64,000 nt of DNA from a virus: positions 1-64,000 of IMG/VR virus record IMGVR_UViG_3300019458_000006; one strand, 5' to 3'. The notes beneath the pieces were generated by a model. That model had not been told where the DNA came from and did not search any database. It saw only the letters and a program-made list of their open reading frames with translations. Numbering within the stretch: position 1 is the stretch's first letter; every line of letters begins with the position of its first letter. Shown here piece by piece: positions 7,545-58,826 of the stretch. The position numbers were made by a program, and so were the translations under genes.

Positions 7545-7624
7545 TACAGCCTCCCTGCTGAGCGAAAGAATCCTGATACCGTCAAGTATAGCAAGAATCG
7601 AGAATGTGGAAGCAAACCGAATCG

Positions 7625-7691
7625 CACACCACCCAGAAGAAGTAAAAACGGCGGCGCTGCGACGATTTTGCTTCTTTTAGGGGGGGGGCTA
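7625..7691 (-). repeat. post-stop-codon intergenic element, copy 1 (terminator-like core plus conserved downstream box)
   Basis: The minus strand reads TAG-C9-TAAAAGAAGCAAAATCGTCGCAGCGCCGCCGTTTTT-ACTTCTTCTGGGTGGTGTGC. The 36-nt core is identical to 44072-44107 on the plus strand. Confidence 0.8.
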
Positions 7692-10600
7692 TTTAGCGTC
7701 GCGGCGAGCCTCGGAACGAGCCTTGAGCAACCGTCTGAGGGCCTCTAACTGCTGGTAGGACCTGAGTTCCTCGGGGCTCATCTTCGCCTGTACTTCCTTG
7801 GGGATGTAGGTGTCGGAGTAAACCTTAGACCCCAGTCTCTTCTCTACCTGCTGGATGCGGTTTCGCAGCTCACGGTCCTGGCTGGCCGGAGAAACGTCCG
7901 TCCGGCGGAAGCCTGTTCCAAGGTTCACTGCCATAGAAAGCGGATCTTTGCGAGTATCGGTGAGTGTCCGCAGGGATGTCGCCACACCGGACAGGGGGCT
8001 ATTGCTGATGGCGTGCTCCAAGAAATCAGATCCAGGATACCGAACCGGACTATCCGTATCCGGCCTGAGTCCGGTCATCTTGCCGACGTTGGCCAGCGTG
8101 CGGCCAAGAACCGGATCTAGCGTCTCCAGATCGCGACCGCCGCGAGGCCCTTTCTGGAAGAAGCTCTGGCCGGTAATCATCTCCAGCGGCCCTTTGATGA
8201 CCGGGGAGGTGCGGCTCAGCGCCTCCAGGCCGACCTGTTTAAGACTGGGAGTGGCAAATCCAGCCGGGTCCTCAAATCCCAGCCCCAGTCCGGTCAGGTA
8301 GCTGGCCGATCCGTCTGGACGATTTCCTAGCGGAATACTGGCTGTCTCGGAGAGGTATTCGGGAGAAAGCTCGTCCTGGCGGTTTAGCCCAGCCACCGCC
8401 TGGATCGTACGGGACATGGCCCCACCGGGATGGGTAAGCAGCCTCTGCACCGTCCAGGGGAGGGAGTTTCTGCTGAACACATAAAAAGGCACAATCCGCT
8501 GCATGACATCCCGCTCGAAGGGAGCCATGGCGGCCTTCGAGTAGTCAAAGTGAATCTCATTCACGGCCTGGGCGGCAGCCTCCGGCGTAAATCCCTTCCG
8601 CTTTAAGTAGATGTACAGGCTGGCCCGGTTCTGATACTCCACCGCCCGGTTGAACTTGGCGTTGGTGGCCATCCAGGTGGCGGCCTTATGCCGCATGCCG
8701 GCTGTGGCACTAGCCACCCTCGGATGGACGCCTGGTGGCAAGTCGGTCTCCAGCATCTTCGACCACACCTCCTTCGAGGTCTGGCCAACACGGAGCGGAT
8801 TCTGGGGATAGGCCGGATGCATGGGCGACGGAGACCCGCCCAAGATGCTGGCGTGGGCCTCCAGGGTAGAGTCTGCGCCCATAATCCCCATCCGCTCAAT
8901 CTCGTCCTGAAAGTCCCTGCCTCCCCTCTTAGCTAATTTCAGGGCCTCTCGGTACGAACCGACGTAATCCAGGACATCTGACAGGCTCTCGATGTACCCG
9001 CTAACCAGATTGGCGTACTGGCCAGAGGTGTGATTGCGAACCCAAAAAGCCGGCTTAACTAGCACCATCCCCGGCTTAAAGTAGCGATTGACTGTATCTA
9101 GCGTCTTGGCAATCAGACCGGCCCATTCCGGATTTTCGTAGGTTTTCACCACGGCCGCTGCCGCGTTGACCAACTTGACCGGCACCTTGGCTGTCGCTAA
9201 CCGTTCCGGATTCAGCCCACTGATCTTCGAGAAGAAGGAAAGGGCCCGCTCCTGATCCATCCCCAAGTGCTCGAAGGCCTCCTCCAGGCCCACACCAGCC
9301 TGGCCTAGGTTCTGGCTGAAAGCCTCATGAATCGCCCGGAAAGAGGCGTTTCGCTTATGCGAGGCCAGGGTGTACCTGGCGTGATCGTTCAGGGAGGTGT
9401 TGTACAGCGCGCGAGCCTTACCGCCGGCGGACGTTTCCAGATACTCGCCGCTGATCCCGGCCGCCCGCTTCACCAGCTTCTGGAGATGCTCGTCGATGCT
9501 GACGTAGCCCTTCTCAGAGGGGTAGCCGAGGTAGCCCTGAAAATCCTGGGCAATGTGCCCGGCAGCATCCTTCCCCTTGTATTTCTCTAGCTTTCCCAGC
9601 GCCTCCACGAGGTGGGCCGGGATGTAGCGGATCTCCGGATCGCGGGCACGCAGGGAGGGATGCCCAGTAGGCAACAGCTTGTTCGTGTCGAGGGGGCCTG
9701 TGCTCTTTTCCACGCGGTAACGCGGGAAATGATATAGCGGCTTATGGACCCCGACGTCGTCCCCGGCCCCCTTGATCCTCTCCAGCATCTGCGCCCGGAT
9801 GCTGAGCTTGTCATATAGCGGATGAGTCGGATCGGCATCGGCCAGCCAGTTGTTCAGGCCAGTCAGCTCATCGAAGCTGCCGGCGTCACCCAGCTCACGC
9901 CCAGTTCCTCCCATCTCGTAGTGCCGCAACCAGAGCTCCTCTTTCGAAGACTGTAGATCGTCCACCAGCTTCTCGATCCCACCCCGCAGATCGTCGGGCA
10001 GGGGCCGGCCCTGGCCGTACTTCACCCAAGCGGCGTCCAAGTCCTTCGTCTCGGCCGCCAGGCGGACCATCCGGTCTAGCACGCGAGCGGATGGGGAGTG
10101 TAGATACCGCAGGTTGTCCGGTAGGTCTGCCGAACTGGCCTTAGCCAACTGATCGAAAGGAAACTTAACCGTGGCCTCGGCCATTGTCTCCGGGTTGGTA
10201 AAATGCACTTCTGCTCCATCATTAGCCAAACCAGTCACATAGCCATAATTGCCACGATCAGCGGCCTTTACCAAGTCACCCTCACTGAACGGCAGGCCGC
10301 TGGGGGCGGCGTTTCCTCCGGCCCTCATGATCTTGGTGAAGTTCTCGTTGATCGCTGCGAACTGTTTGCGGAAGCTCTGCTTCAGGCCGATGGCCTGTCG
10401 CTTGGCTGGCTGCATGTACTTATAGGCCAGCTCGGAGATCTCTTGGCCGTACTTATCGAACCTCCCGCCAGACGGCCCGTGAAATAGGCCCTTAACACCA
10501 CGCCCAGCCTCTCCGGCGGCGGCCGAGGCTAATCTCGCCCCAGGAATCAGGCCGGCCAGTGACCCCATCCCCTCCAGGAAGGCTGCCCCGCCCTCGCCAG

Positions 10601-11778: not shown

Positions 11779-12927
11779 CTACACTACGCCCACTCGTTCG
11801 GCCTTCAGGAACCTGAGAGCTGGCTCCAGCCGGTGAAAGGCCACCATTTCCTTGCGATCTGGATAGATCACCACCGTGGGGCAGGTGGGAACGGTGCGGT
11901 TAAATCCAAACTGCCGCGAATAGGCTGAGGTGATCTGGTAAGAGCCGGGGCGGAGGGCCACCTTCTCCTCGCCATGACCGTAGAAATACTCGCAGGCCCC
12001 CACGTGATGGTGGCCAATGCAGCCGATGTCCCAGTTCTCCGTGCCATGGCGATAGTACTGCTTCACGCAGTGGGTTTCATTGAAGGCGGAGTTCATGCGG
12101 TACTGATGCCTCAGGGCGATCTTGTACTGCTGTGAGCCGAGATTCACCTGGAGCAGGGCCTCATCGGGGGCATAGCACACCAGCTGCTTTTGCAGCAGCC
12201 CCGACAGCACATCCACTCCCGCCACCTGGTTCGTCCATAAATCGTGATTCCCACTGATCGCAACCAAGACCCGGTGAGCGAAGATACTCAAATACCACTC
12301 CAAGAGCTCGTATTGGTCCGAGGGCTGGCTCCGGGCCGCGAGAACGGCCGCCCGGTGCTTGAGATGGTTATCCGTAGCGTCCCCGCCCAGAACCGCGTAG
12401 CATCCGTCACTGGCCGCAATCAACTCGGCGTCTTCACGCATTCGCTGCAAATCGACGGTGTTGCCGAGCGAGATGTGCTGATCCGAGACGAACGTGACGG
12501 CGATTGGCCGGTCTCCGAGGTCCACGCTAAACTCGGCCATCAAGAGCGACTTCTTGATGTGCTCGGCATTATCCAGCTCGGCAGCCTTCCAACGGGACCC
12601 TGGAGAGGAGGACGGGGGAGCCACATAGGCTGAAACGACCGTGGGTCTCGCCCCCTCGGCAATCTTGAGCCGCTGCCGCAGGGCGGCGTTCTCCATAGCG
12701 AGCACGGCGTGCTCGCAGGCGCTGCCATGGCTGGCCATCTCCTTGGCCTCCAGAGCGTCTACGGGAGCCTCCAGGGCCACCGCGTGATTTTCCCGGTTCC
12801 AGGCCGCCATCCAGCACTGGACGGTGCTGCGTGGCTTACAGAGGACCTGGGCGACTTCAAAGACTCGTTTACCATCGGAGAACAGCCGAAAAGCCTGCTC
12901 CCTCTGCGGGTCGGGCTGGGGGGCCAT
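11779..12927 (-). CDS. HTH domain fused to a calcineurin-like metallophosphoesterase
   Basis: The N-terminus RVFEVAQVLCKPRSTVQCWM is HTH-like. The C-terminal motifs GGDATDNH, SGNHD and GHHH are metallophosphoesterase-like. Confidence 0.7.
   Translation of the reverse strand: MAPQPDPQREQAFRLFSDGKRVFEVAQVLCKPRSTVQCWMAAWNRENHAVALEAPVDALEAKEMASHGSACEHAVLAMENAALRQRLKIAEGARPTVVSAYVAPPSSSPGSRWKAAELDNAEHIKKSLLMAEFSVDLGDRPIAVTFVSDQHISLGNTVDLQRMREDAELIAASDGCYAVLGGDATDNHLKHRAAVLAARSQPSDQYELLEWYLSIFAHRVLVAISGNHDLWTNQVAGVDVLSGLLQKQLVCYAPDEALLQVNLGSQQYKIALRHQYRMNSAFNETHCVKQYYRHGTENWDIGCIGHHHVGACEYFYGHGEEKVALRPGSYQITSAYSRQFGFNRTVPTCPTVVIYPDRKEMVAFHRLEPALRFLKAERVGVV
12692..12737 (-). repeat. palindromic element copy A, inside a CDS and in frame (EHAVLAM)
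   Basis: The minus strand reads GCCAGCCATGGCAGCGCCTGCGAGCACGCCGTGCTCGCTATGGA. The 25-nt core GCGAGCACGCCGTGCTCGCTATGGA is identical to 49136-49160 and 52860-52884. Confidence 0.9.
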
Positions 12928-14728: not shown

Positions 14729-15055
14729 ATGAATTCCGAACAACTGGCGGGAGCGGCGAGGTACTGGGATAAGTTTTTTGTCGATGGCGGCGATCCAGAC
14801 GCCGCCCTAGCTGAGATCGAGCTGAGCAGAGACGATCTGTCTTACATTGCTGAGCAACGGGCCTTGAGAATTGCCATGGCCTTTAGAGGCATTCAGCCGA
14901 AGACGGCCATCACGGTCATGGATTTCGATCCTACTGAGGAGGTGGCTGTGGAGTTCATGGCGAAGGTCATTAAAGATGGGATCGTGATCGGCCTGCTTGC
15001 GGGCCGCAGGCTGTCGGCACCGCGCAGTGACCTTCGCCATGCGTCGAGTAACTAG
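14729..15055 (+). CDS. hypothetical protein
   Basis: ATG at 14729 preceded by GAGGG. The track's 14696 start is a TTG. Confidence 0.55.
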   Translation: MNSEQLAGAARYWDKFFVDGGDPDAALAEIELSRDDLSYIAEQRALRIAMAFRGIQPKTAITVMDFDPTEEVAVEFMAKVIKDGIVIGLLAGRRLSAPRSDLRHASSN

Positions 15056-15286: not shown

Positions 15287-15548
15287 GGTCATCGCATACA
15301 AACACGCCTTCGCTCCTGGCACTTGTTACTGCGACTGGCTGAACCGGCCCTGCGGCCCGCAAGCAGGCCCGGTTATCTTCGACACGCTGGGGGCTATCTT
15401 CTGGGCCTACCGGAGCCAGCCCGTCGAGAATCGACATCTAGCCGCCAAACGGGTTTTCTCCATCTGTAAGGCCCGCTACGGCCACGCACGGATAGGCCAG
15501 TTGGACTGGGAGGAGGCGTGTGACCTGTTAAGGGATGCGGATGCCTAA
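15249..15548 (+). CDS. hypothetical protein
   Basis: 99-aa ORF. Confidence 0.5.
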   Translation: MPWRCKMLPPAARVIAYKHAFAPGTCYCDWLNRPCGPQAGPVIFDTLGAIFWAYRSQPVENRHLAAKRVFSICKARYGHARIGQLDWEEACDLLRDADA

Positions 15549-16329: not shown

Positions 16330-16689
16330 ATGACCGGCGCACTATGCACGTATGGCTGTTATTTTGTCCGCCCGGTGACGCGCGAGCGGGCCGTGCTGGC
16401 CATCGCCGACGACTTTCGCCGCGGCTTGTGCGAGCACTTTTGGCGCGCCCACCAGCGGATCGTGGACTTTTGCAACGAGAACTTTCCAGCGTTATGGCAG
16501 GCTATGACCGAATGGACGGGGAAAGCCTGCCACGTTCGCCGCCGGCTATCGTCGTCGGAACAACCGCTGGTGGGTGACGTATGCGATCTTCGCGGGACCG
16601 ACGAGGGACGGCGGAGATTCTCCAGGGTGAAGCCGTTTCTGCCGGTAGCAGCGGTGCGACTGGCCTACGAGGAATTGGAAGGACGATGA
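16330..16689 (+). CDS. hypothetical protein
   Basis: 119-aa ORF. Its TGA overlaps the ATG of the methyltransferase gene (ATGA). Confidence 0.55.
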   Translation: MTGALCTYGCYFVRPVTRERAVLAIADDFRRGLCEHFWRAHQRIVDFCNENFPALWQAMTEWTGKACHVRRRLSSSEQPLVGDVCDLRGTDEGRRRFSRVKPFLPVAAVRLAYEELEGR

Positions 16690-32991: not shown

Positions 32992-35417
32992 TACTTACTC
33001 CCTGAAGAGTTGGGCTTGGCCGCTGCCAGCGACTTCGTGGCAGCGACTTTCGCCTGAGATTGATCTTTCGTGGCCTGCACCTGGGCGATGTTGGATTGTT
33101 TCCGCTGCTGGAGCTTCTGCTGGCCTTGTTTAAGCTGGAGGTTGCCTTGCTGTTTCTGCTGAGTGATCTGCTGGCGGCCCTGCTCGATCTGCTGGGCCCC
33201 CAGCGCCTCCTTAACGGCTAGATCGGTCTGGCTGCTCTCCCGCTGGAACTGCATCTCCTGAGCGTGTTCGGTGGCCTTTATCTGCATTTCCATCTGCTTC
33301 TCTTGCAGCTTCATCTGAAGCTCAGCCATCTTGGCTTGCAGCTCGGCCTTCAGCTTCTCAATCTCCATCGCCACGCGGGCCTCTTCAGCCTTCTGCTCTA
33401 GCCGGATCTCTTGCTGCTTAAACTGGGCTTCCATCTGGATCTCGGTCAGGGGGTTAGCCTGGGCTTCGCCCTGAAGCTTCAGGGCTTCCGCCTGGGTCTT
33501 CTGGACCTCGGCCTGTTTCAGCTGCTGATCGAGCTGGGCATTGGGGTCATTGGGATCCTTCTCCGGGATCGCCAGAGCCCCTAGGTCCATATCGTGCAGC
33601 TCGCCCCAAATCTGCATCGTGCCGTTCACGGGCGTGTAGTTGCCGGATAGCTCGCCGTAGGCTTGCAAGAGCGGCAGGTAGCGACCCATCACCTCCTGGA
33701 GGTTGGCGATATCACGCTCCTTGTTGGGCCGCCGCATCGAGGAGGCCGCCACCTCGTAGCTCATTTGCCGGACTACCGTCTCTTGATCGGCGTTCTCGAT
33801 GTACTGCTGCCAGAGGCCGGCACCTACTGGCCCTAGAAGCTGTTCGACATCCCGGCCCTTCACGAACATCCAGGACAGCATCGCCTCGACGCCAGCCACC
33901 CGACTTTGCCAGGCCACGACCTTTTTTTGCATGTATTCGGGGCGGGCACTCACAGCGGACTTGCGGGCCTCTGTCGTTGAGGCGGTGCGATCCTGGGTTC
34001 CATCTTCGTTCTGACCATAGACGAACGGGGTCATGCCCATTCGTTTGTCGAAGGCGTTGCTGAGCAGCTCCAGAACGGCCCAAGCATCCCGATTGACCTC
34101 CTTCTGCTCAATCAGCTGGAGAACCTTCTTCACGTCCTCGGCTCCCGGCGGGAGTGGGAAGACACTACAGTCATCTCCATCGTCCAGCACCTTCTTCATG
34201 TCGTCGTGGTATTGCCCCAGGACGGCCCACATCTGGCGGCTGGCGTGCCAGGTGCGGTTCACGAGCCAGGAGACAATGCAGTTGATGGCCTTCAGCTCTC
34301 CGAGTGCCGGGGATAACGGGGGTACGCCGTACGGACTTTCGGGATCCTCCCAGAAGATGAGCCGCTCCACGGGCCAGCGGTCATCCGCCCAGAGCGGGAC
34401 GGGCCACTCGAAGTGCAGTCGGATCTCCTCATCGGTGGCCCCCCGCCGAATCTTGTCGGCCGGGCAGTTGAGCGGATACGGACAATCCGGACAAACAGCC
34501 AGGTACGCATAGTCCCCGACAACCTCCTCCAAGTGATTCTTCAGTAAGCTCGTCATCCCGGTCAGGCGGGCCCCCACGCCCATCTTCGACCAGACCTCGT
34601 ACCACACCACCAGATCGTTCGTCTTACCGCTCGCCCGTTCCGCGGCGAACCCGTCTTTCGTATTGGCCTCGGCGTGGTGCCAGCCTGACTCTAGCGTGGC
34701 CTTCCCTTTCAGGGAGCCGGCGGGGAGCCGGAACTTCTTCTCGACCTGCCAATGGGGCTGAATGTGCCTCAGGGCGATCCACTTACATTCCTGGGAGGTC
34801 TTAAAGTCCGGATCGAAGACCAAGTCCTCTGGGGCTTTATGGAAGCAGCCCGTGAGCATCTTGTCGGACCCTGGCATGGAATAAGGGGCGGGCCAGAGGT
34901 GCCCAGAACCCTTCAGGAGAGCATCCAAGAGGGCCATCTCGCTGTGCCACTCCAGGCCCCCCCCCGGCATCTCCCTGGGCGTGTAGTTCAGCCAGCCCTG
35001 CATCAGGTGGGCCGTGAGCCGATCGACCGTGCTCTTCTGCTGGATCTGCTGAGCCAATGCCTGCCTGACATTCGGATGGGAGATTAGATCGGGAGGCAGT
35101 TCAAGGCTGTCTTTCGGAGAGACCGTGCGATGGGGGACGTCCCACATCAGGTTAGGGAGGTAGATAGCCGTAAACTCAAAGGCCTTATTGATGTTCACTC
35201 GGAATCGCGGCGACTTCACCCCCCGCCAGAACTTCTTGGCGTACATGGGGTCCCACATGGCCGCCGCCGACTTGTTGTAGAACATCTGGCATTCGCTGCC
35301 GACGTCCAGCCACCGCTTCCTGCCTGGCGATGTCAGCGCAGCCTCGATCTTGGAGAGCCAGCCGGCGATCAACGGACGCAGGAATTCGTAATTCCTTAAA
35401 TCATCGAGGTCGAGCAT
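32991..35417 (-). CDS. portal protein with Gln/Lys-rich coiled-coil C-terminal extension
   Basis: 808 aa, one small gene downstream of the large terminase. The call rests on size and position. The C-terminus is a long EQK-rich helix. Confidence 0.55.
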   Translation of the reverse strand: MLDLDDLRNYEFLRPLIAGWLSKIEAALTSPGRKRWLDVGSECQMFYNKSAAAMWDPMYAKKFWRGVKSPRFRVNINKAFEFTAIYLPNLMWDVPHRTVSPKDSLELPPDLISHPNVRQALAQQIQQKSTVDRLTAHLMQGWLNYTPREMPGGGLEWHSEMALLDALLKGSGHLWPAPYSMPGSDKMLTGCFHKAPEDLVFDPDFKTSQECKWIALRHIQPHWQVEKKFRLPAGSLKGKATLESGWHHAEANTKDGFAAERASGKTNDLVVWYEVWSKMGVGARLTGMTSLLKNHLEEVVGDYAYLAVCPDCPYPLNCPADKIRRGATDEEIRLHFEWPVPLWADDRWPVERLIFWEDPESPYGVPPLSPALGELKAINCIVSWLVNRTWHASRQMWAVLGQYHDDMKKVLDDGDDCSVFPLPPGAEDVKKVLQLIEQKEVNRDAWAVLELLSNAFDKRMGMTPFVYGQNEDGTQDRTASTTEARKSAVSARPEYMQKKVVAWQSRVAGVEAMLSWMFVKGRDVEQLLGPVGAGLWQQYIENADQETVVRQMSYEVAASSMRRPNKERDIANLQEVMGRYLPLLQAYGELSGNYTPVNGTMQIWGELHDMDLGALAIPEKDPNDPNAQLDQQLKQAEVQKTQAEALKLQGEAQANPLTEIQMEAQFKQQEIRLEQKAEEARVAMEIEKLKAELQAKMAELQMKLQEKQMEMQIKATEHAQEMQFQRESSQTDLAVKEALGAQQIEQGRQQITQQKQQGNLQLKQGQQKLQQRKQSNIAQVQATKDQSQAKVAATKSLAAAKPNSSGSK

Positions 35418-43835: not shown

Positions 43836-44066
43836 ATGAACAGGGCGATTGAGGACCGGGAGCATACGATTGCGCTTACGAGGCTGTGCAAGTTACTGCC
43901 AGACGAAGTGACGTACGAAACGCTTCGTTATTGGTGCTTGAAGGGACGCCGCAAGGATCGCAATGACCCTAACTCTTGTGTTCGCATGGAAAGCGTCAAG
44001 AAGCCGTGCGGCCTCTCCTCGTCGGTGGAGGCCTATTGGCGGTTCATTGCGGCGCTCAACGACTAG
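43836..44066 (+). CDS. small HTH DNA-binding protein
   Basis: ALTRLCKLLPDEVTYETLRYWCLKGRR is HTH-like. It is the first gene of the rightward block. Confidence 0.5.
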   Translation: MNRAIEDREHTIALTRLCKLLPDEVTYETLRYWCLKGRRKDRNDPNSCVRMESVKKPCGLSSSVEAYWRFIAALND

Positions 44067-44130
44067 CCCCCTAAAAGAAGCAAAATCGTCGCAGCGCCGC
44101 CGTTTTTGGTACTTTCGGGTGGTTTGCAAT
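44064..44130 (+). repeat. post-stop-codon intergenic element, copy 2
   Basis: TAG-C5-TAAAAGAAGCAAAATCGTCGCAGCGCCGCCGTTTTT-GGTACTTTCGGGTGGTTTGC. The 36-nt core is identical to the reverse complement of 7644-7679. Confidence 0.8.
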
Positions 44131-44144
44131 TTCAGAGGCCTGCC

Positions 44145-45077
44145 ATGAGATTCAAGCAGCGATTCTTCTCGCCGCGCAGCTATGTTCCCAAGTTCTACGG
44201 CTATGCCCGCTTCAGCCACAGGCGGCGGCTCGATAAGTTCGATAAGGTCGATAGCGTCGCGGACCAAGAGATTCGGATCCGGGCGTTCTTTGAGATGTTA
44301 AAGGCGGAGAGGATTCTAGAGTGGGGCGGCATGTTTTCGGAGCCCCTGGCCCAGAGCGCTCACAAGCGCCGCTTTTCTCGTCGGCCGGCCGGCCGGGAGT
44401 TGGTGGCCATCCTTAGACCCGGCGATCAGCTGTGCGTGGATAGGTACTACCGCCTGTTTCGCGACATGGAGGATTTTGCTCACCAGCGCCGCTGGTTTGC
44501 TGAGCGGGGAATCGGCCTGCACATCGTCTCGTTCTTGGGTCTCTCGATGGACGCCAACAGCCTAGGGGCCGAGATGATGTTCGTGATGTATGAGGCCTTT
44601 GGGGAGTTTGAATCACAAATGAAGAGCGAGCTAGTCCGGGCGGCCAAGGCCAGCCTGCGAAGCCGGGGCCGGCACGACGGCGCTAAACTGCCTAAGTTCT
44701 GCCAGCTCGTGGACTGCCCTCCCGGCGAAACAAACATCGGCCGGCGAATGTTCCTGCCCTGGGCCCTGCCGGCCATGGATATGATCGAAGACGCCGTGGA
44801 CAGTGGCAGGAAGCTATCGTCCGCCATTGACGAGATCAAAGAGCAGTTCGGCGTCCGGCTGAATCGGAACTATGCGTCCGATTTATACTGGTTCACCAAG
44901 GCGTACAAAGAGCTGGGGCAGCCGGACATTAATACGCTTAATTGGCTGGACGTCATGGTGGAGTACAAGCAAGCCCACTGTGGAACCGACTTGGACCCCA
45001 GACCGCCCGCGACCGTTCGTAAGTATCTAGAAAGGAAGGAGGTCAGCGATGCCAAGGCCTACCTGCGGCGAGTGTAG
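44145..45077 (+). CDS. serine recombinase (resolvase/invertase catalytic domain)
   Basis: YGYARFSH (catalytic Ser context), GDQLCVDRYYRLFRDMEDF, and MFVMYEAFGEFESQMKSELVRAAKA. Confidence 0.7.
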   Translation: MRFKQRFFSPRSYVPKFYGYARFSHRRRLDKFDKVDSVADQEIRIRAFFEMLKAERILEWGGMFSEPLAQSAHKRRFSRRPAGRELVAILRPGDQLCVDRYYRLFRDMEDFAHQRRWFAERGIGLHIVSFLGLSMDANSLGAEMMFVMYEAFGEFESQMKSELVRAAKASLRSRGRHDGAKLPKFCQLVDCPPGETNIGRRMFLPWALPAMDMIEDAVDSGRKLSSAIDEIKEQFGVRLNRNYASDLYWFTKAYKELGQPDINTLNWLDVMVEYKQAHCGTDLDPRPPATVRKYLERKEVSDAKAYLRRV

Positions 45078-46633: not shown

Positions 46634-46662
46634 TTGACTTCGCCGCAGTCACGGACTACACT
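46634..46662 (+). promoter_or_regulatory. sigma70-like promoter (TTGACT-N17-TACACT)
   Basis: -35 at 46634-46639, 17-nt spacer, -10 at 46657-46662. The G-free leader begins about 8 nt downstream. Confidence 0.55.
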
Positions 46663-46670
46663 GGTAGCTG

Positions 46671-46702
46671 CCACTCACCTACCTACTCACTTACTCACTT
46701 AC
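46671..46702 (+). repeat. G-free octamer-repeat leader, locus 1
   Basis: CCACTCACCTACCTACTCACTTACTCACTTAC has no G over 32 nt. GAGG and the ATG (46713) follow directly. Confidence 0.85.
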
Positions 46703-46712
46703 GAGGCACGCC

Positions 46713-47351
46713 ATGCTCACTTATGCGTCTTTTAGCGGCGGAGAACTCACGCTGCTGCCAGCTCCCACCTCCCCTCGCTCTTTCTGGCGAGATATGCGGC
46801 GGAGGGAGGCGGAGTACCTGGAGTCGCGGCGGTGGCGCGACTCCATAGACCCAGACGAGCCACCCCGGCCCATGCCCCTCCGGCCAGACGGCCAGAGCGC
46901 CCGGAGGGAGGCGCTGACGCCATATATGCGACTCGAGGAGCGGCACCCGAATCACCGCGACTTCGGCGAGGAGGAGCTCGCCGAAGTCGCCGCGGCTAAT
47001 GAGCGCGACTGGCAGGCAGTGTGCGAATTTCTGAGAGGCAAACTACCCCTCCATTCGGGGATACACACCGTAGTAGACGAGCAGGGGCTGCCGTTCCCCA
47101 TGCATGTACGTATAGCCACCTCCGGGCTGCCGGTGGCGGAGACCACGAGACCGAGGTATGAGCCGCCAGCGCCGCTAAACAGGCCCTGCTCGTATATGTG
47201 CCACTCACCAGAGGCGGTGCACTGTATGCCCGGCGTCTGCCGGGCCACACCAGAGGCCGCGCGGCGGTACGTGCCTGGCACCAAAGTGCTCCTGGAGTTC
47301 GCCTGCCGCTACGCCGCGGAGACTCTCCGCGAGCTCGGATTTGAGGCATGA
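46713..47351 (+). CDS. hypothetical protein
   Basis: 212-aa ORF with a GAGG Shine-Dalgarno 6 nt upstream. Confidence 0.6.
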   Translation: MLTYASFSGGELTLLPAPTSPRSFWRDMRRREAEYLESRRWRDSIDPDEPPRPMPLRPDGQSARREALTPYMRLEERHPNHRDFGEEELAEVAAANERDWQAVCEFLRGKLPLHSGIHTVVDEQGLPFPMHVRIATSGLPVAETTRPRYEPPAPLNRPCSYMCHSPEAVHCMPGVCRATPEAARRYVPGTKVLLEFACRYAAETLRELGFEA

Positions 47352-47991: not shown

Positions 47992-48002
47992 ATGCGCCCG
48001 CC

Positions 48003-48168
48003 CAGGCGGGCGGCCAGCCCCGCAGCTGGCGGGCCTAGGACGCGATCTGCGGCGTGCGGCAGGCCTGGCGGGCCGAGGCCAGGCCGGCCGCACGAGCACG
48101 CCCTGGCGGGCCGCTGGCGAGCGCACAGGGCCAGCCAGCGGCGAGCTGCCGGCGGGCGGGCTGGCGGG
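48003..48168. repeat. very GC-rich block with CTGGCGGGCC iterons
   Basis: CTGGCGGGCC occurs at 48026, 48065 and 48103 (39- and 38-nt spacing). CTGGCGGG occurs at 48161 and CAGGCGGG at 48003. All ORFs here look compositional. Confidence 0.8.
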
Positions 48169-48187
48169 TAGCCGGCCCGCCGAGTGG

Positions 48188-48231
48188 AATCACCCACCTA
48201 CTCACCTACTCACCTACTCACTTACTCACCC
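48188..48231 (+). repeat. G-free octamer-repeat tract, locus 2
   Basis: AATCACCCACCTACTCACCTACTCACCTACTCACTTACTCACCC has no G over 44 nt. Confidence 0.85.
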
Positions 48232-48382
48232 GCACGGCCCCCAAGGAACACTTACTGGACCAAGGAAAACCTTGGCTCTTGGAAGCGGATAGCAGCCCAT
48301 AATTCAGACTGGTATTGATGCTAGGGGGCTGTTTTTGTAAACAGATTGTCAGGAAGTTAGCCGCTGCTTTAAGGAACATCTA

Positions 48383-48732: not shown

Positions 48733-48903
48733 ATGCAACGTCGCTACCGAGTCAGTTGGCGCGGGCCGTACGACGGACAGAGAAATAACGACCGGATCCT
48801 GACGCTGACAGCCAAGAACAAGAAACAGGCCCTGGAATTGGTCGGTCGCCTGTTCCCGATGAAGAAGATAAGGGTGGAATACCTGACCACCCAGAAGAAG
48901 TAA
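48733..48903 (+). CDS. hypothetical small protein
   Basis: MQRRYRVSWRGPYDGQRNNDRILTLTAKNKKQALELVGRLFPMKKIRVEYL, with GAGGA upstream. An alternative overlapping 59-aa ORF at 48618 cannot be excluded. Confidence 0.45.
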   Translation: MQRRYRVSWRGPYDGQRNNDRILTLTAKNKKQALELVGRLFPMKKIRVEYLTTQKK

Positions 48904-48960
48904 TATCGTCGCTGCTGCGACGTTTTTACTACTTCCAGGTGGCTTGATATAGCAAACCAG
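48901..48960 (+). repeat. post-stop-codon intergenic element, copy 3 (diverged), containing a terminator and a putative promoter
   Basis: TAA-TATCGTCGCTGCTGCGACGTTTTTACTACTTCCAGGTGGCTTGATATAGC. It shares ATCGTCGC..CG-T5-ACT..CTTC..GGTGG with copies 1 and 2. Confidence 0.6.
48907..48927 (+). terminator. intrinsic terminator
   Basis: CGTCGC-TGCT-GCGACG followed by TTTTT. Confidence 0.7.
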
Positions 48961-48964
48961 CCGC

Positions 48965-49025
48965 ACCCACTCACTTACTCACTTACTCACTTACTCACTT
49001 ACTCACTTACTCACTCACCACATTG
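48965..49025 (+). repeat. G-free octamer-repeat leader, locus 3 (CACTTACT x5 plus partial copies)
   Basis: CACCCACTCACTTACTCACTTACTCACTTACTCACTTACTCACTTACTCACTCACCACATT has no G over 61 nt. A putative promoter, TTTACT-N17-TATAGC, lies at 48925-48953. Confidence 0.9.
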
Positions 49026-49060: not shown

Positions 49061-49327
49061 ATGCTAGCTTTATCGTTCGTGGACGCCATCCGCCAGGATG
49101 GCTATCGTCTCCTGCGCGTCTCGAGAACCAACCGGCGATACGCCGGCGAGCACGCCGTGCTCGCTATGGACCGGGACTACATCGTCACCTACGTCTTTGT
49201 GCCTCACGGCGGGTGCTATGGGGCGTGCTGCCACCGGCAGAAAATAATCCGGTCCACCGGTCGGGCCGAGGCACGGGTGGAGTTTCTACGAAGGTTTCCC
49301 CTAGCCGATGTGATTCGAGTGGACTGA
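49061..49327 (+). CDS. hypothetical protein carrying palindromic element copy B
   Basis: 88 aa with a GGAGGG Shine-Dalgarno 9 nt upstream. It contains ..YAGEHAVLAMDRDY.. encoded by 49136-49160. Confidence 0.55.
   Translation: MLALSFVDAIRQDGYRLLRVSRTNRRYAGEHAVLAMDRDYIVTYVFVPHGGCYGACCHRQKIIRSTGRAEARVEFLRRFPLADVIRVD
49136..49160 (+). repeat. palindromic element copy B, inside a CDS and in frame
   Basis: GCGAGCACGCCGTGCTCGCTATGGA. Confidence 0.9.
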
Positions 49328-49770: not shown

Positions 49771-49904
49771 CGACAGAGATCAAACCAACCCCAACGACAT
49801 GAATGGGGATGATTGGGCTGAGTTTTATCACGAACTCGGCCCGGACTACGAGGATTACATGGACCACGACCACTCAATGGACGCTTAACATAAGGAGAAA
49901 CCTA

Positions 49905-50408
49905 ATGCAGAGTTTCAGACTGGGAATTGGACATCACCCACAAGGACCGTCGGGAGGGGTGGGCTGCGTCAACGAGATCGCCTCGGTGCTGGCCGGCGAG
50001 AAGTGGAGCGATAACGCTTCCTGCGTCGATCAGTTCTGCCGGGAGATGGCAATTGCCTACAACGACTCGTTTGACGACGACGACGAACTGAACGCCGATG
50101 AGTATACCCAGGGATTGCCTTGGAGGCTGGTCGGCACGGCCAGCGAGAAGCAGGGGAAGGCGCGTCGGAAAATGCTGGCTGAATTCTACGAGTCCTACAG
50201 CGACGACTATAGTCCAGAGACCCACTGCGATATCCTCTCTAGCGAGAGGATTGGTTCATTAGCCGGAAGACTTATCGTTACCGCGACGACTCGTCCAGAC
50301 GCCAGGCGGTGCCTGGAAGAGATGCTGGCCCTCACCGAGATCAAGGAACCGGCCTGTCAGGACGTATGCCTGGTGGGGGCCGCCGGAAACGAAGGACCGA
50401 ACATCTGA
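49905..50408 (+). CDS. hypothetical acidic protein, first gene of the Ubl-cassette neighbourhood
   Basis: I prefer the start MQSFRLGIG at 49905, which has an AAGGAG upstream. Confidence 0.55.
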   Translation: MQSFRLGIGHHPQGPSGGVGCVNEIASVLAGEKWSDNASCVDQFCREMAIAYNDSFDDDDELNADEYTQGLPWRLVGTASEKQGKARRKMLAEFYESYSDDYSPETHCDILSSERIGSLAGRLIVTATTRPDARRCLEEMLALTEIKEPACQDVCLVGAAGNEGPNI

Positions 50409-50445
50409 CAAATGTCACGCCCGCATTTTCGTCACACTGCTTAAA

Positions 50446-50478
50446 GCGAGCACCCTGTGCTTGCTAGCGCTGGCTGGC
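50446..50478 (-). repeat. palindromic element copy E (intergenic, reverse orientation, diverged)
   Basis: The plus strand reads GCGAGCAC-CCT-GTGCTTGC-TAGCGCTGGCTGGC. The reverse complement begins GCCAGCCAGCGCT, identical to the 13-nt flank of copy C. Confidence 0.7.
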
Positions 50479-50527: not shown

Positions 50528-50752
50528 ATGCGCGTCACGATTCGGTATGGGACCGGCAACGAAACAACCACGGAGTTTCCAGATGGAACCACGCTGAGCG
50601 ATGTCATTGGTAACCCCAATGTGCGCGGTCTCTTGGGCTACGGCCAGAATGTCGTCGGCCACATCGGCGGCATTCCTCAGCAGGACTCCCTGACTCTGTT
50701 TAATGGGGTTGTGGTGGAGATCCACGACAAGCAGAGCCAAAAGGGGTCATAG
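50528..50752 (+). CDS. ubiquitin-like beta-grasp protein (ThiS/MoaD/Prok_Ub-like)
   Basis: 74 aa: MRVTIRYGTGNETTTEFPDGTTLSDVIGNP...LTLFNGVVVEIHDKQSQKGS. The length and hydrophobic pattern are ThiS-like. A strong AGGAGG Shine-Dalgarno is present. The C-terminus is KGS rather than GG. Confidence 0.55.
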   Translation: MRVTIRYGTGNETTTEFPDGTTLSDVIGNPNVRGLLGYGQNVVGHIGGIPQQDSLTLFNGVVVEIHDKQSQKGS

Positions 50753-51140: not shown

Positions 51141-51902
51141 ATGGCAATGAAAAATTGCATCGTCATCGACGAGGATGGAGTGGCCCAAAAAGTCACAGTC
51201 AAAACCTTCGAAGCCGGGGAGATACAAAACGCCCTCTACAGGGTCTCACAGAGCGGGTTCCACAGGATCGATTCGGTGTTTATGGTGGACGGCCAGCCCG
51301 TGACTATGGCACTCAACAACAACGGAGTGACTCTGGCGGCGGTCCAACTCCGGCAACTGCCGATCACCACCAACTACATGCTGAATGATAGTGTGCTGAA
51401 CCCTTGCTGGGCGACACTGACAGACGGTGTGCGCATGACTTGCATCTTCGTACCACCAGACAACATGAAGCTATGGCTGACCGTGGAACTCGTGAGCATA
51501 GAGAAGCGGACCACGATCCGTGAACTCGTGAGCATAGAGAAGCGGACCACGATCCGTAACGTGTTGATCTATGCCCAGGCGGCTGGGCAGACCGGCTACT
51601 TCCGGCTCCCGCTCCCTAATATTCACACCGATAGCCGGCTGTGCCCGAACCGGGAGCATGAAGAATGGGCGAACCACCTCACCGGAGAAAATGCAAACAA
51701 CATCGAGCTGTTGCTCAAAAAAGCCATCCGTCACGTCGTTGAGAGCGTCTGGAATAAGGACCTGGCTCCAGCCAACTCAGCGACCAGGCAAATATTCAGT
51801 TTCGATCCCCAGACACTCACCAACCAGACCATCCCCAGCGAGTGGTGGACGAGCTGCCAGCGCGTCTCGCGGCTAGAAATGGAGGTTCTCCATGCTAACT
51901 AA
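51141..51902 (+). CDS. E2-like (UBC-fold) candidate with a 12-aa tandem duplication
   Basis: FRLPLPNIHTDSRLCPNREHEEW resembles the E2 HPN-x(5-8)-C active-site flap. It overlaps the next ORF by 11 nt. Confidence 0.4.
   Translation: MAMKNCIVIDEDGVAQKVTVKTFEAGEIQNALYRVSQSGFHRIDSVFMVDGQPVTMALNNNGVTLAAVQLRQLPITTNYMLNDSVLNPCWATLTDGVRMTCIFVPPDNMKLWLTVELVSIEKRTTIRELVSIEKRTTIRNVLIYAQAAGQTGYFRLPLPNIHTDSRLCPNREHEEWANHLTGENANNIELLLKKAIRHVVESVWNKDLAPANSATRQIFSFDPQTLTNQTIPSEWWTSCQRVSRLEMEVLHAN
51486..51557 (+). repeat. perfect 36-bp tandem duplication (2 copies), in frame
   Basis: GAACTCGTGAGCATAGAGAAGCGGACCACGATCCGT x2 encodes ELVSIEKRTTIR twice. Confidence 0.95.
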
Positions 51903-52266
51903 CCCACAAATCGATCAGCGAGTGAGTTCCCTCCTCCATCCGGATCAGCAGGGGATGATTGTTGAAATTATAGATGACTCGATTGGCGTCAGGTTTGATG
52001 CACCAAGCGAACCAGAGCCGGCTGCCGAGGAGAACCTCTATCGGCAGCTGCTGGTCGATTTTTCCGTCAGGTCTGGAGATCCAGACGAAATCCAGGGTAT
52101 GGACTTACCTCTGTTTGTCCACTGGCTGTTCAAACGTAGCAGTGAATTCCCGCAACAGGTCCAGGAAATTAAGGACACCGTCATAAGCGCCCGGGGGCAA
52201 GTTATCGACCTGCTGCGATCTGAGATCGCACGTAGACTTATTCAGGAGATGTGCAATGAAACATAA
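51892..52266 (+). CDS. hypothetical protein in the Ubl cassette
   Basis: 124-aa ORF whose start and stop overlap the neighbouring genes. Confidence 0.55.
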   Translation: MLTNPQIDQRVSSLLHPDQQGMIVEIIDDSIGVRFDAPSEPEPAAEENLYRQLLVDFSVRSGDPDEIQGMDLPLFVHWLFKRSSEFPQQVQEIKDTVISARGQVIDLLRSEIARRLIQEMCNET

Positions 52267-52975
52267 AGTCATCGGAGGTGGTGGGATAGGCAGTCGGGTG
52301 GTGGAGCAACTAGTTCGCCTCGTTGATCCTGCCACCGTCACCGTCATCGACGGGGATACGCTGGAAACCAAGAACCTGGACCGCCAGCTATTTAACCAGT
52401 CCGCTGTTGGCCGCAACAAAGCCGAGGCCTTGGCGGAGAAGTACGGCACCGGGTTTATTCCGGAGTATTACTCCTGCGGAGCATTCAATGGAATGGATAA
52501 CACCACGCTCCTCTGGTGCTGTGCGGACAACAACACTTGCCGGCGGGAGGTGCTCGATGAATGCGACTTAAATCGCTGCTGGGCGATTCTCGCGGGCAAC
52601 GAGTACACCGACGCTGAGGCCATGCTCTACGAGCGGGGACTGCGGAACGGGCCGCACGACCCCAGGACGATCTATCCAGCCATCCTCACGGATCACCAAA
52701 ACGACCCTCTGGGGCCACCCGGCTGCGTAGAGCTGTCAGAGGACAGCCCCCAACTGGTCCTGGCAAATGTCTGGGCGGCCAGCTTTGCTTTGCATCTGTA
52801 TTGGTTTCACTTCCGCGAACATCAGGCCGTGGACAAGAGAGCCAGCCAGCGCTGCACTGGCGAGCACGCCGTGCTCGCTATGGAGAAAGCCTACTGGCCC
52901 ATCCATCACAAAGTGAACTTCCTCCAGTTTTCCACAATCCGGAGGCTCCACCGCCAGGAGGTGATAAATGCCTAG
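52256..52975 (+). CDS. ThiF/E1-like adenylyltransferase
   Basis: VIGGGGIGSRVVEQL (GxGxxG), IDGDTLETKNLDRQLF, GRNKAEAL, CADNNTCR. It carries palindromic element copy C near the C-terminus. Confidence 0.8.
   Translation: MKHKVIGGGGIGSRVVEQLVRLVDPATVTVIDGDTLETKNLDRQLFNQSAVGRNKAEALAEKYGTGFIPEYYSCGAFNGMDNTTLLWCCADNNTCRREVLDECDLNRCWAILAGNEYTDAEAMLYERGLRNGPHDPRTIYPAILTDHQNDPLGPPGCVELSEDSPQLVLANVWAASFALHLYWFHFREHQAVDKRASQRCTGEHAVLAMEKAYWPIHHKVNFLQFSTIRRLHRQEVINA
52841..52884 (+). repeat. palindromic element copy C, inside a CDS and in frame
   Basis: GCCAGCCAGCGCTGCACTG-GCGAGCACGCCGTGCTCGCTATGGA. Confidence 0.9.
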
Positions 52976-54843: not shown

Positions 54844-54916
54844 AGCGAGCACGCACCGCACAGGCGGCTTGCTTGGGCCACCATTCGTCACACCCTTTCT
54901 CACTAAGGAGGCTCCC

Positions 54917-55363
54917 TTGCCTACCGCTGCTCAGAAGAAACGCCTACACGACACGCGGGAGTATTTCCGCGAGAAGCTGCTCACGGTTGTGAATGATGTC
55001 GAGGAGGCCTGGCCGACGCTCCAGACCCGTTTCGGGATCAATCGCAGCCAATGGTCCCCGCTGAAACGTCAGCTCGGTGAAATACTGGCCGCCGCCAGGA
55101 AACACAATGGCAAGGTGGTAGCTAGTGATCCAGAGGACACGCCTCCTCTATTTAGCGAGCCGGAGGAAATCGTCATCCCCGCGGATATGCCTGTGGCTGC
55201 TAAGTCCGCCTTTAATGTTTTACTGGCCAGAAATGGGCAGCTAGCTAATGAAGTGCGGGCCAGGGATGTGGAGATCGCCGCCATGCGTGGCGTGATCGCC
55301 AGCAACACCAAGCGGATCAACACGCTCCGGGGTGCCCTTAAGGACGTGATCGACGCAATATAA
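54917..55363 (+). CDS. hypothetical coiled-coil protein (TTG start)
   Basis: A TAAGGAGG Shine-Dalgarno lies 6 nt before the TTG at 54917. The track's longer ORF would overlap the JAB gene and run across a promoter. Confidence 0.5.
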   Translation: MPTAAQKKRLHDTREYFREKLLTVVNDVEEAWPTLQTRFGINRSQWSPLKRQLGEILAAARKHNGKVVASDPEDTPPLFSEPEEIVIPADMPVAAKSAFNVLLARNGQLANEVRARDVEIAAMRGVIASNTKRINTLRGALKDVIDAI

Positions 55364-55434
55364 GCCAGCCTGGCGAGCTGTGCTCGCGCTAGCCAGCTGG
55401 CGCAGCGCCGGCGAGCACTCCACGCTCGCGCTAG
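55364..55434 (+). repeat. two tandem diverged copies (D1, D2) of the palindromic element, intergenic
   Basis: GCCAGCCTGGCGAGC-TGT-GCTCGCGCTAG and CCAGCTGGCGCAGCGCCGGCGAGCACTCCACGCTCGCGCTAG. Confidence 0.75.
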
Positions 55435-55453: not shown

Positions 55454-55526
55454 GTGGTAGTAGCTCAAACGATTAGAGCGCTAGATGGTGAATCTAGAGG
55501 TGCGGATTCAACTTCCGCCTGCCACC
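55454..55526 (+). tRNA. tRNA-like gene (cloverleaf folds by hand; anticodon position reads GUG/His) with several non-canonical positions
   Basis: Hand fold: acceptor GTGGTAG/CTGCCAC (7 bp, one G-U), D stem GCTC/GAGC, anticodon stem CTAGA/TCTAG with loop TGGTGAA, variable loop AGGT, T stem GCGGA/TCCGC with loop TTCAACT, discriminator C. Deviations: G rather than U at position 33, A at 19, and A53-U61. Confidence 0.45.
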
Positions 55527-55611
55527 CTTGTGAACGAGGCCGGCTATACCGGGATGAATCCAGCCGTTGTTCGTTTTTTCGTCACATCGTCACCGCTAGG
55601 AGTATTTCTCA

Positions 55612-57374: not shown

Positions 57375-58826
57375 ATGCTCTCTGGCAACTTCCGCTGGGA
57401 GCAGGTCAATCTGGCCGTGGCTCATGTCAACGGCCAAATCTATCGCATGAACGGGCAGCACACCTGCTTTCCGGCAGGGACAAAAATACGCCTGGCCGAC
57501 GGGACGCTTAAGCCAATTGAGCACGTCACGCTCATGGACAACGTCCTTACTGCCGAGGGGCGGTGCCGTGGTGTAAGGCAGGTCCATTCAATGCCGCACG
57601 TCGGGCACCTCTGCCGAGTGCGGCTCTGGGGTCACGCGCACCTCCGCTGCACCCCCAATCACGAGATTCTTACCAGGCGTGGATACGTCTCGGCAGATTC
57701 ATTAACATCTGATGACCATGTGAAAGTGCCGCGATATGCCCCGCAGTGGGCGTCTGTCATCACGACAGCCGAGCACGTAAGCGGATCGTCCGCAGCAAGC
57801 CGGGCCAAAAGCACAACCTTTCCAGCCTCTAGCTTTTCACACGGCGGCCGGGTGAATCACAAGCCGGTCCCGGATGCAATTAAACTTGACAATGACTTTG
57901 GGCGACTGATTTGGCTTGCGCCATCCATACACCAAGAACTCACTAAGAACAGGCCAGTCTGGAAGGTGACGGTGGCCGTAGCGACGCTAGGAACTAGGCA
58001 CCAGGGCCTCCCGGAGGTGGATTCCGACTCCACCTGGCGCAGGGTGCGGGCAATCGATAAAGAGAAATTTGCCGGCCTAGTGTACGACCTTGGCGTGGAC
58101 GAAGATCACTCGTACGTCGCTGAAGGGATTGGCGTGCATAACTGCTGGGCGCGTATCCAGGCCGATGAGGAGGGCCTCAGCAAAAAGACCCGCTGCCCAG
58201 TCCAGATGCTCCAGTACCAATGCAAGACCGTGGAGGACGCCCGGCAGCTGTACGCCTCCCTGGATCGTGGCCGGGGCCGCGGATCGGGGCTGGTAGTCAC
58301 CTCTCTGCTGCTAGGCACCAAGGAATTTGCGGGATATACCGGCCCGCAGCTGAAGATGATGAGTGCTGGGTACGGTCTCTGGCGGTGGGATGAGGCGCAC
58401 GCACGCAAATGGCACAATGCCGATGAGCGAGCGGATATGATGAAGACCGAACATCACAAGCTAACCCTCATCGTGGGGTCGATCATCAGGGAGTCAAGGC
58501 AGCGGGACTTCAGGCACCTGAAGCGGGCGGCCGGGATTGCGGCCATGTTTGAAACCTGCAACAAGGCCCCGGCTATTGCTCGCGAGTTTTGGCTGGTGGT
58601 GCGGGACGGAATCGGCGTAACCAACAAGACCGATCCTCGCTACGCCCTGCGGGAGTACCTCAAGAACACGGCCCAGTGCAGTAGCGAAGCGGCTGGCAGC
58701 AACCTCCGCGTGGCCACCGTTGAGGACATCTACCGGGCCTGTATTCAAATGTGGAATGCCTTTCGGGCCGACAAGGAAGTTAGGCTGATCCGCATCGCCG
58801 AAGGCAACCGTCCACTAGCGCGCTAA
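57375..58826 (+). CDS. ParB/DndB(DGQHR)-like protein interrupted by an intein
   Basis: The extein junction reads ..YRMNGQHT|CWARIQ.., so the intein sits right after a DGQHR/DGxHR-like motif. Confidence 0.5.
   Translation: MLSGNFRWEQVNLAVAHVNGQIYRMNGQHTCFPAGTKIRLADGTLKPIEHVTLMDNVLTAEGRCRGVRQVHSMPHVGHLCRVRLWGHAHLRCTPNHEILTRRGYVSADSLTSDDHVKVPRYAPQWASVITTAEHVSGSSAASRAKSTTFPASSFSHGGRVNHKPVPDAIKLDNDFGRLIWLAPSIHQELTKNRPVWKVTVAVATLGTRHQGLPEVDSDSTWRRVRAIDKEKFAGLVYDLGVDEDHSYVAEGIGVHNCWARIQADEEGLSKKTRCPVQMLQYQCKTVEDARQLYASLDRGRGRGSGLVVTSLLLGTKEFAGYTGPQLKMMSAGYGLWRWDEAHARKWHNADERADMMKTEHHKLTLIVGSIIRESRQRDFRHLKRAAGIAAMFETCNKAPAIAREFWLVVRDGIGVTNKTDPRYALREYLKNTAQCSSEAAGSNLRVATVEDIYRACIQMWNAFRADKEVRLIRIAEGNRPLAR
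57465..58142 (+). mobile_element. intein (226 aa, Cys1 ... VHN|C), no intact homing-endonuclease domain
   Basis: CFPAGTKIRLADGTLKPIEHV (block A), TPNHEILT (block B), LVYDLGVDEDHSYVAEGIGVHN|C (blocks F and G). I verified the junction codons. The segment LDNDFGRLIWLAP may be a LAGLIDADG remnant. Confidence 0.8.

Follow-up and report, generated by a model that had tools for sequence, protein, structure and literature searches.

A palindromic repeat of about 42 nt lies in frame inside three unrelated genes of an uncultured phage-like genome

Background

The viral record IMGVR_UViG_3300019458_000006 derives from an uncultured, phage-like genome, and its positions 1-64,000 are the 64,000-nt stretch analysed here, referred to as the window. 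A 25-nt sequence, GCGAGCACGCCGTGCTCGCTATGGA, which begins with a perfect palindrome, occurs exactly three times in the window, where dinucleotide-preserving shuffles lead to an expectation of 0.00. The occurrences are on the sense strand of unrelated genes, named here A, B and C, all begin at codon position 1, and all place the residues EHAVLAM(E/D) in the host protein (gene A, ...SACEHAVLAMEN...; gene B, ...YAGEHAVLAMDR...; gene C, ...CTGEHAVLAMEK...). On the evidence of sequence comparison, the three genic copies are very probably 14-codon insertions of a DNA-level repeat. An earlier reading of the letters of the window alone (the sequence-only reading) had noticed a palindrome with identical nucleotides in three coding sequences, in the sense orientation and the same frame, and the exact count bears this out. 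It had located the copies in genes A and C correctly; its position for the copy in gene B, 49136-49160, is 10 nt too low.

The whole genome is circular and 70,515 bp long, and consists of the window and a further 6.5 kb recovered from locus L240. It is circularly closed, no close relative was found among cultured phages, and the majority of its proteins have no family assignment in searches of about 93 phage proteins against Pfam and of part of them against PHROGs. The copies of the repeat are 100% identical between contigs of two runs and two assemblers, so the repeat is no assembly artefact.

Results and Discussion

Comparison of the host genes with their homologues

Is the shared peptide an inherited feature of three protein families, or has the DNA that encodes it been added to each gene? 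In gene A the 14 residues are missing from all 28 aligned homologues. The family reads ...PVDxLEAKEME(L/I/N)AALRxxLKIA and the protein of the window reads LEAKEM-ASHGSACEHAVLAM-ENAALRQRLKIA, the ancestral ...LEAKEME(L/I/N)AALR... having become LEAKEM(ASHGSACEHAVLAM)ENAALR. The nucleotides of gene A in the relative L246, ...GCGATGGAGAACGCCGCCCTGCGG, have no insert, and ATGGAGAACGCCGCCCTGCGG runs on unbroken. In gene C the 14 residues (ASQRCTGEHAVLAM, or this run moved along by one residue) face a gap in 25 of 25 homologues. For gene B an exhaustive HMMER search yielded two homologues, both of 69 aa compared with 88 aa in the window, and these lack about 15 residues at the position of the insert (a 15-column gap; n = 2). 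All three genes show a net gain of 42 nt.

The sequence-only reading had proposed such an alignment of orthologues, and had argued that identical codons in unrelated proteins point to an element of the DNA or RNA, possibly a miniature palindromic insertion tolerated in frame by analogy with the Rickettsia palindromic elements (RPEs). The alignments agree with both points, as the insert is absent from every homologue. It had also named the observation that would speak against this, namely orthologues that encode EHAVLAM with diverged codons, and neither EHAVLA nor HAVLAM is present in any of 240 homologues of the host genes. With a gap in all aligned homologues and the motif in none, the similarity is that of a DNA-level repeat, and no protein motif.

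The contrary view would be that EHAVLAM has a function as a peptide, for example as a degron, docking motif or Ubl (ubiquitin-like)-related tag, and that this module was selected in three proteins. The same frame and the same 7-8 residues in all three would suit such a module, and the AlphaFold model of A runs a helix through the peptide. However, all synonymous sites are identical between the copies, related copies are present in non-coding DNA, one of them reversed, and the inserted peptide is not conserved in its N-terminal half, all in addition to the lack of the motif in the homologues. The intergenic copies and the identity at synonymous sites contradict this view, which we reject as having next to no probability.

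The sites of insertion are structurally permissive as judged from predicted structures. In the AlphaFold model of C the insert is in a loop of low confidence (pLDDT 57-71) that connects helix 167-199 with strand 215-221, and in that of A it is placed where a disordered linker (pLDDT <50) meets a long helix, the insert itself having a pLDDT of 46-73. The homologues of A and C differ in length at the insert positions. The unit is free of stop codons in five of six frames. Since it has 14 codons and is stop-free in these frames, an insert in a permissive loop or linker is simply translated, and EHAVLAM thus appears in three proteins.

Could the ribosome instead bypass the inserts, as in T4 gene 60 and the mitochondrial 'byps', and so restore the ancestral protein? 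The A insert stands between matching AUG codons 42 nt apart and has a strong hairpin within it. Bypassed inserts tied to mobile elements are also known (bioRxiv 10.1101/2022.08.31.505936). Nevertheless, each of the three inserts comprises exactly 14 open, in-frame codons, as expected from selection for read-through; the take-off and landing codons are mismatched in both B (AGA/AUG) and C (AGA/AUG); and no stop codon follows the putative take-off codon. Bypassing is therefore a highly unlikely explanation.

Anatomy of the unit and its intergenic copies

The similarity between copies reaches upstream of the 25-mer, for a total unit of 42-44 nt. In order, the unit comprises 5'-GCCAGCC (ACCAACC in B, not GCCAGCC as in the other copies), a variable spacer of 2-14 nt that is G+C-rich and hairpin-prone, the perfect 9-1-9 palindrome GCGAGCACG-C-CGTGCTCGC, and TATG. 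On the opposite strand, it reads (A/C)TAG followed by the palindrome (GCGAGCAC...GTGCTCGC). The upstream flanks are related as the sequence-only reading had stated, with GCCAGCCA common to A and C, and B and C identical at 12 of 19 positions. The similarity of A and C amounts to 84% across 56 nt, and so extends past the 42-nt insert on both sides.

A profile of the element run against the 70,515-bp genome detected five significant members, one of which is adjoined by a short sixth, D1; the profile search returned no further copies in the rest of the genome. Thus there are six copies: three genic, one direct tandem pair (D1 and D2) and one reversed intergenic copy (E) (Table 1). The sequence-only reading had seen the tandem pair before the tRNA-like gene and a reversed copy upstream of the Ubl gene that has the flank GCCAGCCAGCGCT in common with C, and these are now placed exactly. 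Copy E lies 33 nt past the stop codon of the preceding gene and within the leader of the Ubl gene. The intergenic copies are all 0-33 nt downstream of an open reading frame (ORF), between co-directional genes. Five of the six copies are co-oriented with their own gene block: A shares the minus strand with the genes around it, and B, C, D1 and D2 share the plus strand with theirs. Because the intergenic D2 is also 42 nt long, this looks like the canonical length of the unit, with the in-frame property built in.

Table 1. Positions of the repeat copies, their host genes and a possible fragment in the window.
Feature	Position	Strand	Size	Description
Exact 25-mer in A	12692-12716	-	25 nt	GCGAGCACGCCGTGCTCGCTATGGA
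Exact 25-mer in B	49146-49170	+	25 nt	GCGAGCACGCCGTGCTCGCTATGGA
Exact 25-mer in C	52860-52884	+	25 nt	GCGAGCACGCCGTGCTCGCTATGGA
Copy A	12694..12735	-	42 nt	In-frame insert ASHGSACEHAVLAM, residues A65-M78 of gene A
Copy B	49127..49168	+	42 nt	In-frame insert TNRRYAGEHAVLAM, residues T23-M36 of gene B
Copy C	52841..52882	+	42 nt	In-frame insert ASQRCTGEHAVLAM, residues A196-M209 of gene C
Copy D1	55364..55391	+	28 nt	GCCAGCC-TG-GCGAGCTGTGCTCGC-GCTA; begins right behind the stop codon of gene 54917-55363
Copy D2	55392..55433	+	42 nt	Intergenic, forms the direct tandem with D1; its end is 20 nt from tRNA-His; 24 bits, E=4e-6
Copy E	50441..50478	-	38 nt	Reversed, between gene 49803-50408 and Ubl gene 50528-50752; 21 bits, E=3e-5
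Host gene A	11779..12927	-	382 aa	HTH_23 and Mre11/SbcD-like metallophosphoesterase, 'DNA repair exonuclease', phrog_7339
Host gene B	49061..49327	+	88 aa	Conserved small Cys/His-containing protein, no function assigned; G+C at third codon positions (GC3) 0.72
Host gene C	52256..52975	+	239 aa	ThiF/E1-like adenylyltransferase
Possible 5' fragment	48130..48146	+		GCCAGCCAGCGGCGAGC, part of the structured GC-rich block 48000-48180; below significance in the profile search

After the palindrome the 3' end is TATG in A, B and C, GCTA in D1 and D2, and TTTA in E. The stems are the perfect 9-1-9 (19 nt) in A, B and C, 6 bp in D1 and D2, and 8 bp in E, where on the plus strand the stem holds one G-T pair (G-U in RNA). 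A putative small hairpin in the left module is clear in B, C and D2, shifted in A and missing in D1, which is without the variable left hairpin. In the proposed pairing register 86% of the cells pair, compared with 15-50% when the register is slid, on four sequences with one compensatory pair and with A misfitting the left helix. A search of the element against Rfam, including its CRISPR repeat families, returned only chance matches to microRNAs (E>3).

The half copies of the sequence-only reading did not hold up. Solitary GCGAGCAC occurs seven times in the window with about 3.5 expected from the base composition, and the half copy at 54845 is compatible with chance. Within the GC-rich block, GCCAGCCAGCGGCGAGC is a better candidate for a fragment than the half copy there. 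The block itself covers about 180 nt at about 80% G+C, contains CTGGCGGGCC- and GGCCAGCC-type repeats, and folds much better than shuffles do (z=-3.95); possible identities are an origin, a structured RNA and a group of decayed copies. A further degenerate copy at 16382, with three mismatches, was rejected as the flanks of the element are missing.

Conservation is confined to one half of the unit

The two parts of the unit differ in how well they are conserved. In the right module, which comprises the palindrome and TATGGA, none of the 25 columns varies among A, B and C, six synonymous sites included, whereas 11 of the 19 columns of the left module vary (Fisher p ~1e-5 for the contrast). Because the right 25 nt are identical even at synonymous sites and the left 19 nt are variable, the constraint, as far as it can be read from these sequences, is on nucleotides and is confined to the right module. 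Such perfect conservation suggests that something reads the right module sequence-specifically.

One possibility is that the palindrome is mainly a functional cis-element, either an operator or 'stoperator'-like site for a dimeric protein or a hairpin for the stability or processing of mRNA, kept by selection after a vehicle repeat had seeded it. The identity of the right module at three sites next to 19 nt that drift is in keeping with this, as are a 9-1-9 dyad typical of the binding sites of dimers, the co-orientation of five of the six copies with transcription, and the location of the intergenic copies in the early-gene region (the Ubl-E1 operon and tRNA-His). In addition, the distant relative L373 has repeated palindromes beside promoters. 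However, an operator leaves the 42-nt insertions into coding loops unexplained, and it is the intergenic copies, where function would be expected, that diverge more, with 5-8 changes in the 25 nt. Nor do the copies occupy consistent positions with respect to the two sigma-70-like promoters that were found. Furthermore, a U-tract for termination is missing, the z-scores of folding are weak, and the stem is too short for RNase III. We consider it rather unlikely that such a function is the main explanation. The operator and RNA-hairpin options, which the sequence-only reading had also raised, concern function and are compatible with an origin by insertion.

Insertion sites and their flanks

The first bases 3' of the unit are GA at A, B, C and the D pair, four of the five sites that are independent. 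Directly 3' of A and C the sequence is GAGAA(C/A)GCC, and GAGAAMGCC occurs three times in the window: two occurrences adjoin copies and the third is empty. This sole unoccupied GAGAACGCC site is at 33789-33797 on the minus strand. From the comparison with L246, GAGAA(C/A)GCC is ancestral in gene A, and in gene C the AAAGCC of the 9-mer encodes a family-conserved K-(P/A) before YWP. As the 9-mer is ancestral in A and conserved in the family of C, the similarity marks a target and did not travel with the element. To the left of the insert, A and C are likewise similar, CAAG(G)AGA.

The copies could also have spread with no dedicated enzyme, through template switching guided by microhomology or through short-patch gene conversion while the phage replicates or recombines. 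A nascent strand or a single-stranded DNA (ssDNA) fragment with the hairpin would anneal where short flanks resemble one another. The likeness of A and C beyond the insert, CAAG(G)AGA in the left flanks and GAGAA(A/C)GCC in the right ones, argues for it, as do the 4-nt redundancy ATGG at the A junction and the failure to find a transposase among the phage proteins. An exact in-frame tandem duplication of 36 nt nearby, at 51486-51557, indicates that slippage-type events occur and are tolerated. On the other hand, the flanks of B, D and E have just ^GA or nothing in common with those of A and C, and homologies of 7-9 nt are very short for recombination. Template switching also leaves unexplained both the invariant right module next to the diverging left one and the 42-nt length of the intergenic copy. 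We regard it as a lesser possibility, of low probability.

The 36-nt duplication lies inside the gene at 51141-51902, to which it adds a 12-aa repeat, and is itself a recent in-frame length change that has been tolerated.

Relation to known repeats

In-frame intragenic copies of repetitive extragenic palindromic (REP) sequences and of RPEs have been documented in bacteria, and some bacterial REPs are present in frame inside genes as dimers, adding 20-30 aa (PMC3733652). The bacterial REP has a GTAG tag followed by the palindrome, and RPEs carry a CGTC tag (PMC3733652). The phage unit resembles bacterial REPs in being a short, G+C-rich, stem-loop-forming palindrome that bears at one end a conserved tag, which reads (A/C)TAG on the other strand of the phage unit, in its unit size of 28-42 nt, and in that its intergenic copies are just downstream of ORFs, between co-directional genes. 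It differs from them in its carrier, a phage genome and not a bacterial chromosome, and in that no RAYT was found among the phage proteins. Like the Rickettsia RPEs, it is a palindromic repeat in frame in unrelated functional ORFs, absent from the homologues and located in permissive regions. RPE-1 is about 100-150 bp in size, whereas the phage unit is 42 nt, has no CGTC tag and no sequence similarity to RPEs, and resides in a different host replicon.

Two other classes of small repeat invite comparison. The GC clusters, double-hairpin elements and 'byps' of mitochondria are about 26-80 nt, G+C-rich, made of two adjacent hairpins, and dispersed in the intergenic and coding DNA of a compact genome; ribosomes skip the byps, for which an in-frame length is no requirement. 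The phage unit is like the GC clusters and double-hairpin elements in its very small size, its presence in both DNA classes of a small compact genome and perhaps its double-hairpin look, but those elements are found in organelles, and the two-hairpin fold in the phage is clear only in B, C and D2. MITEs (miniature transposable elements with inverted repeats), which include the mycobacteriophage mobile element MPME, are small non-autonomous repeats that spread in genomes, phages included. In this respect the phage unit is similar, a non-autonomous small repeat spreading within a genome. MITEs, however, measure 70-440 bp, are bounded by terminal inverted repeats and duplicate their target sites regularly, whereas the phage unit ends in GCCAGCC... 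and ...GCTATG, with no terminal inverted repeats and no consistent duplication. The behaviour of the phage unit is closest to that of intragenic REPs and Rickettsia RPEs, although it departs from REP/RAYT in tag, RAYT, copy number and type of doublet, from RPEs in size and tag, and from MITEs in terminal inverted repeats and target duplications.

The preferred explanation

We lean towards a REP/RPE-like, non-autonomous palindromic element that has multiplied within the phage lineage by a mechanism acting in trans, with a preference of target, and is tolerated in proteins as a 14-residue loop; this seems to us slightly better than evenly probable. The copies would be made by a trans-acting enzyme, either one of the host or the product of a phage gene that has escaped recognition. 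That enzyme would recognise the invariant hairpin module on single-stranded DNA during replication, as in REP/RAYT or IS200/IS605. Integration would favour a purine-rich target 3' of the unit, ^GA at four of five sites and ^GAGAA(A/C)GCC at A and C, and such a target may be present mostly in one codon phase of coding DNA, which would explain the shared frame. The right module would stay identical as the recognised part, its reader being either the mobilising enzyme or a regulator. The specific proposal of a mobility mechanism directed by the hairpin and by ssDNA is more tentative than the element itself, and we hold it only as a possibility that is on balance doubtful.

A bolder version of this can be imagined, in which the repeat is an ultra-small, phage-native mobile element. 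An unrecognised phage protein would read the 25-nt hairpin module, insert the unit at a target of about 9 nt, ^GAGAAMGCC, and tag proteins with a 14-residue peptide. It would thereby plant a shared binding site in early transcripts (the exonuclease, the E1-like protein, the Ubl leader and the tRNA-His leader) for one co-regulating factor. We consider this improbable.

Several observations weigh against the REP/RPE-like explanation. The repeats that flank the copies are inconsistent: ATGG (4 nt) at A, TGCTTA (6 nt) at E, none at B and 1 nt at C. As the redundancy at the junctions differs between copies, a regular target-site duplication was rejected. Agreement of the three genic copies in frame and orientation has, by simple arithmetic, a probability of only ~0.03-0.04, and the contrast between the left and right modules could stem from gene conversion that recurred or from several source copies that had diverged. 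RNA folding energies do not stand out at this G+C content (z -0.3 to -2.3), and covariation amounts to one compensatory pair, the four full-length copies giving no statistical power. The likeness to REPs is also limited. The tag is ATAG in A, B and C, CTAG in D1 and D2, and AAAG in E, with no GTAG or CGTC at either end of any copy. There are only six copies, half of them intragenic, whereas REPs are high-copy and mostly extragenic. In addition, the sole doublet is a direct tandem and not the inverted pair of BIMEs (bacterial interspersed mosaic elements) and REPINs (REP doublets forming hairpins).

The searches for a mobilising enzyme and for copies elsewhere count on the same side. No transposase, whether Y1/HUH (PF01797-type) or other, was found among the ~93 phage proteins in Pfam and, for part of them, PHROGs. 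The exact 25-mer had no match in IMG/VR. The 19-mer gave single chance matches in G+C-rich taxa, among the matches listed, in species-representative genomes and JGI metagenomes. The element was not found in relatives of the phage at 45-75% protein identity; L246, L247 and L366-L376 had neither a copy nor a comparable family of palindromes in genes, and there was no match in cultured phages and plasmids.

Other candidates and neighbouring features

A degenerate pattern searched in IMG/VR returned chance singletons only, among them an unrelated coding match in the phage relative L345. The extended 23-mer was in none of the 19-mer matches listed from species-representative genomes and JGI metagenomes. 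A host REP family was rejected on the listed 19-mer matches, all of them single and in unrelated G+C-rich taxa. The best-looking extra match, L167, was also rejected, being the opposite strand of a dehydrogenase gene that encodes GEHGVLAG. No strain variants with an empty site were present among the retrievable contigs of the phage, all of which are 100% identical.

The nearest finds of a recombination type were a serine recombinase (44145-45077), an intein and a weak match to a Vsr-like nuclease. The intein, with Intein_splicing and Hint domains, is in a 483-aa protein (57375-58826) and adds a further mobile element to this early region. The arms of a perfect 21-nt inverted repeat, at 14990-15010 and 15349-15369, are 338 nt apart in two adjacent plus-strand genes. 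The phage also has a serine recombinase or invertase-like protein, that of 44145-45077, and the inverted repeat may mark an invertible segment.

The palindrome of the distant relative L373 (44% identity in gene A, 47% G+C) is TTTGGAAAA(T/A)TTCCAAAA. Its six copies, at 3235, 7932, 11362, 13752, 14402 and 16246, are all intergenic, and each precedes a TTGACT -35 box by 5 nt. Their arrangement resembles that of a promoter-operator repeat, which would be another way of using palindromes in the phage group.

Other repeats accompany the copies in the genome. The motif TTCGTCAC occurs six times, all on the plus strand (49053, 50428, 50502, 54884, 55578 and 19409), with 1.6 expected; five of the six are just upstream of gene starts (49-55.6 kb), and two flank copy E on either side. 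It is probably a promoter or regulatory motif of early genes. Arrays of the octamer TACTCAC(C/T), with up to six perfect copies, are present in intergenic DNA of the early region (46668-46714, 48183-48245 and 48952-49022), the first of them starting directly after a sigma-70-like promoter at 46634-46662; they are possibly iterons, or repeats of a leader or translation-enhancer type. Self-complementary, terminator-like units of 66-83 nt at 7619-7702, 44049-44131 and 48877-48942 make up a second repeat family, with a G+C stem that T-runs flank on either side. One of them is inverted relative to the others, and the units are located at the borders of gene blocks. The tRNA-His (GTG) gene directly 3' of the D1/D2 tandem, at 55454-55527, was the sole match of the whole window in an Rfam search at the gathering thresholds.

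Conclusions

In-frame palindromic repeats are otherwise known from Rickettsia, a few other bacteria and organelle genomes, and limited literature searches found no phage precedent for them. The repeat described here indicates that the densely packed genes of phages, too, absorb selfish or regulatory repeats as extra peptide loops. There is a consequence for annotation, in that 'shared motifs' in unrelated phage proteins risk being mistaken for domains, and the origin of lineage-specific insertions in phage proteins becomes easier to explain. The case is a compact one, with six copies, insert-free homologues for each genic copy, and a split between a drifting and an invariant part that points to the part that is recognised. 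If the factor that mobilises or binds the element is encoded by the phage, this would be a tractable minimal system for the study of hairpin-directed DNA insertion.

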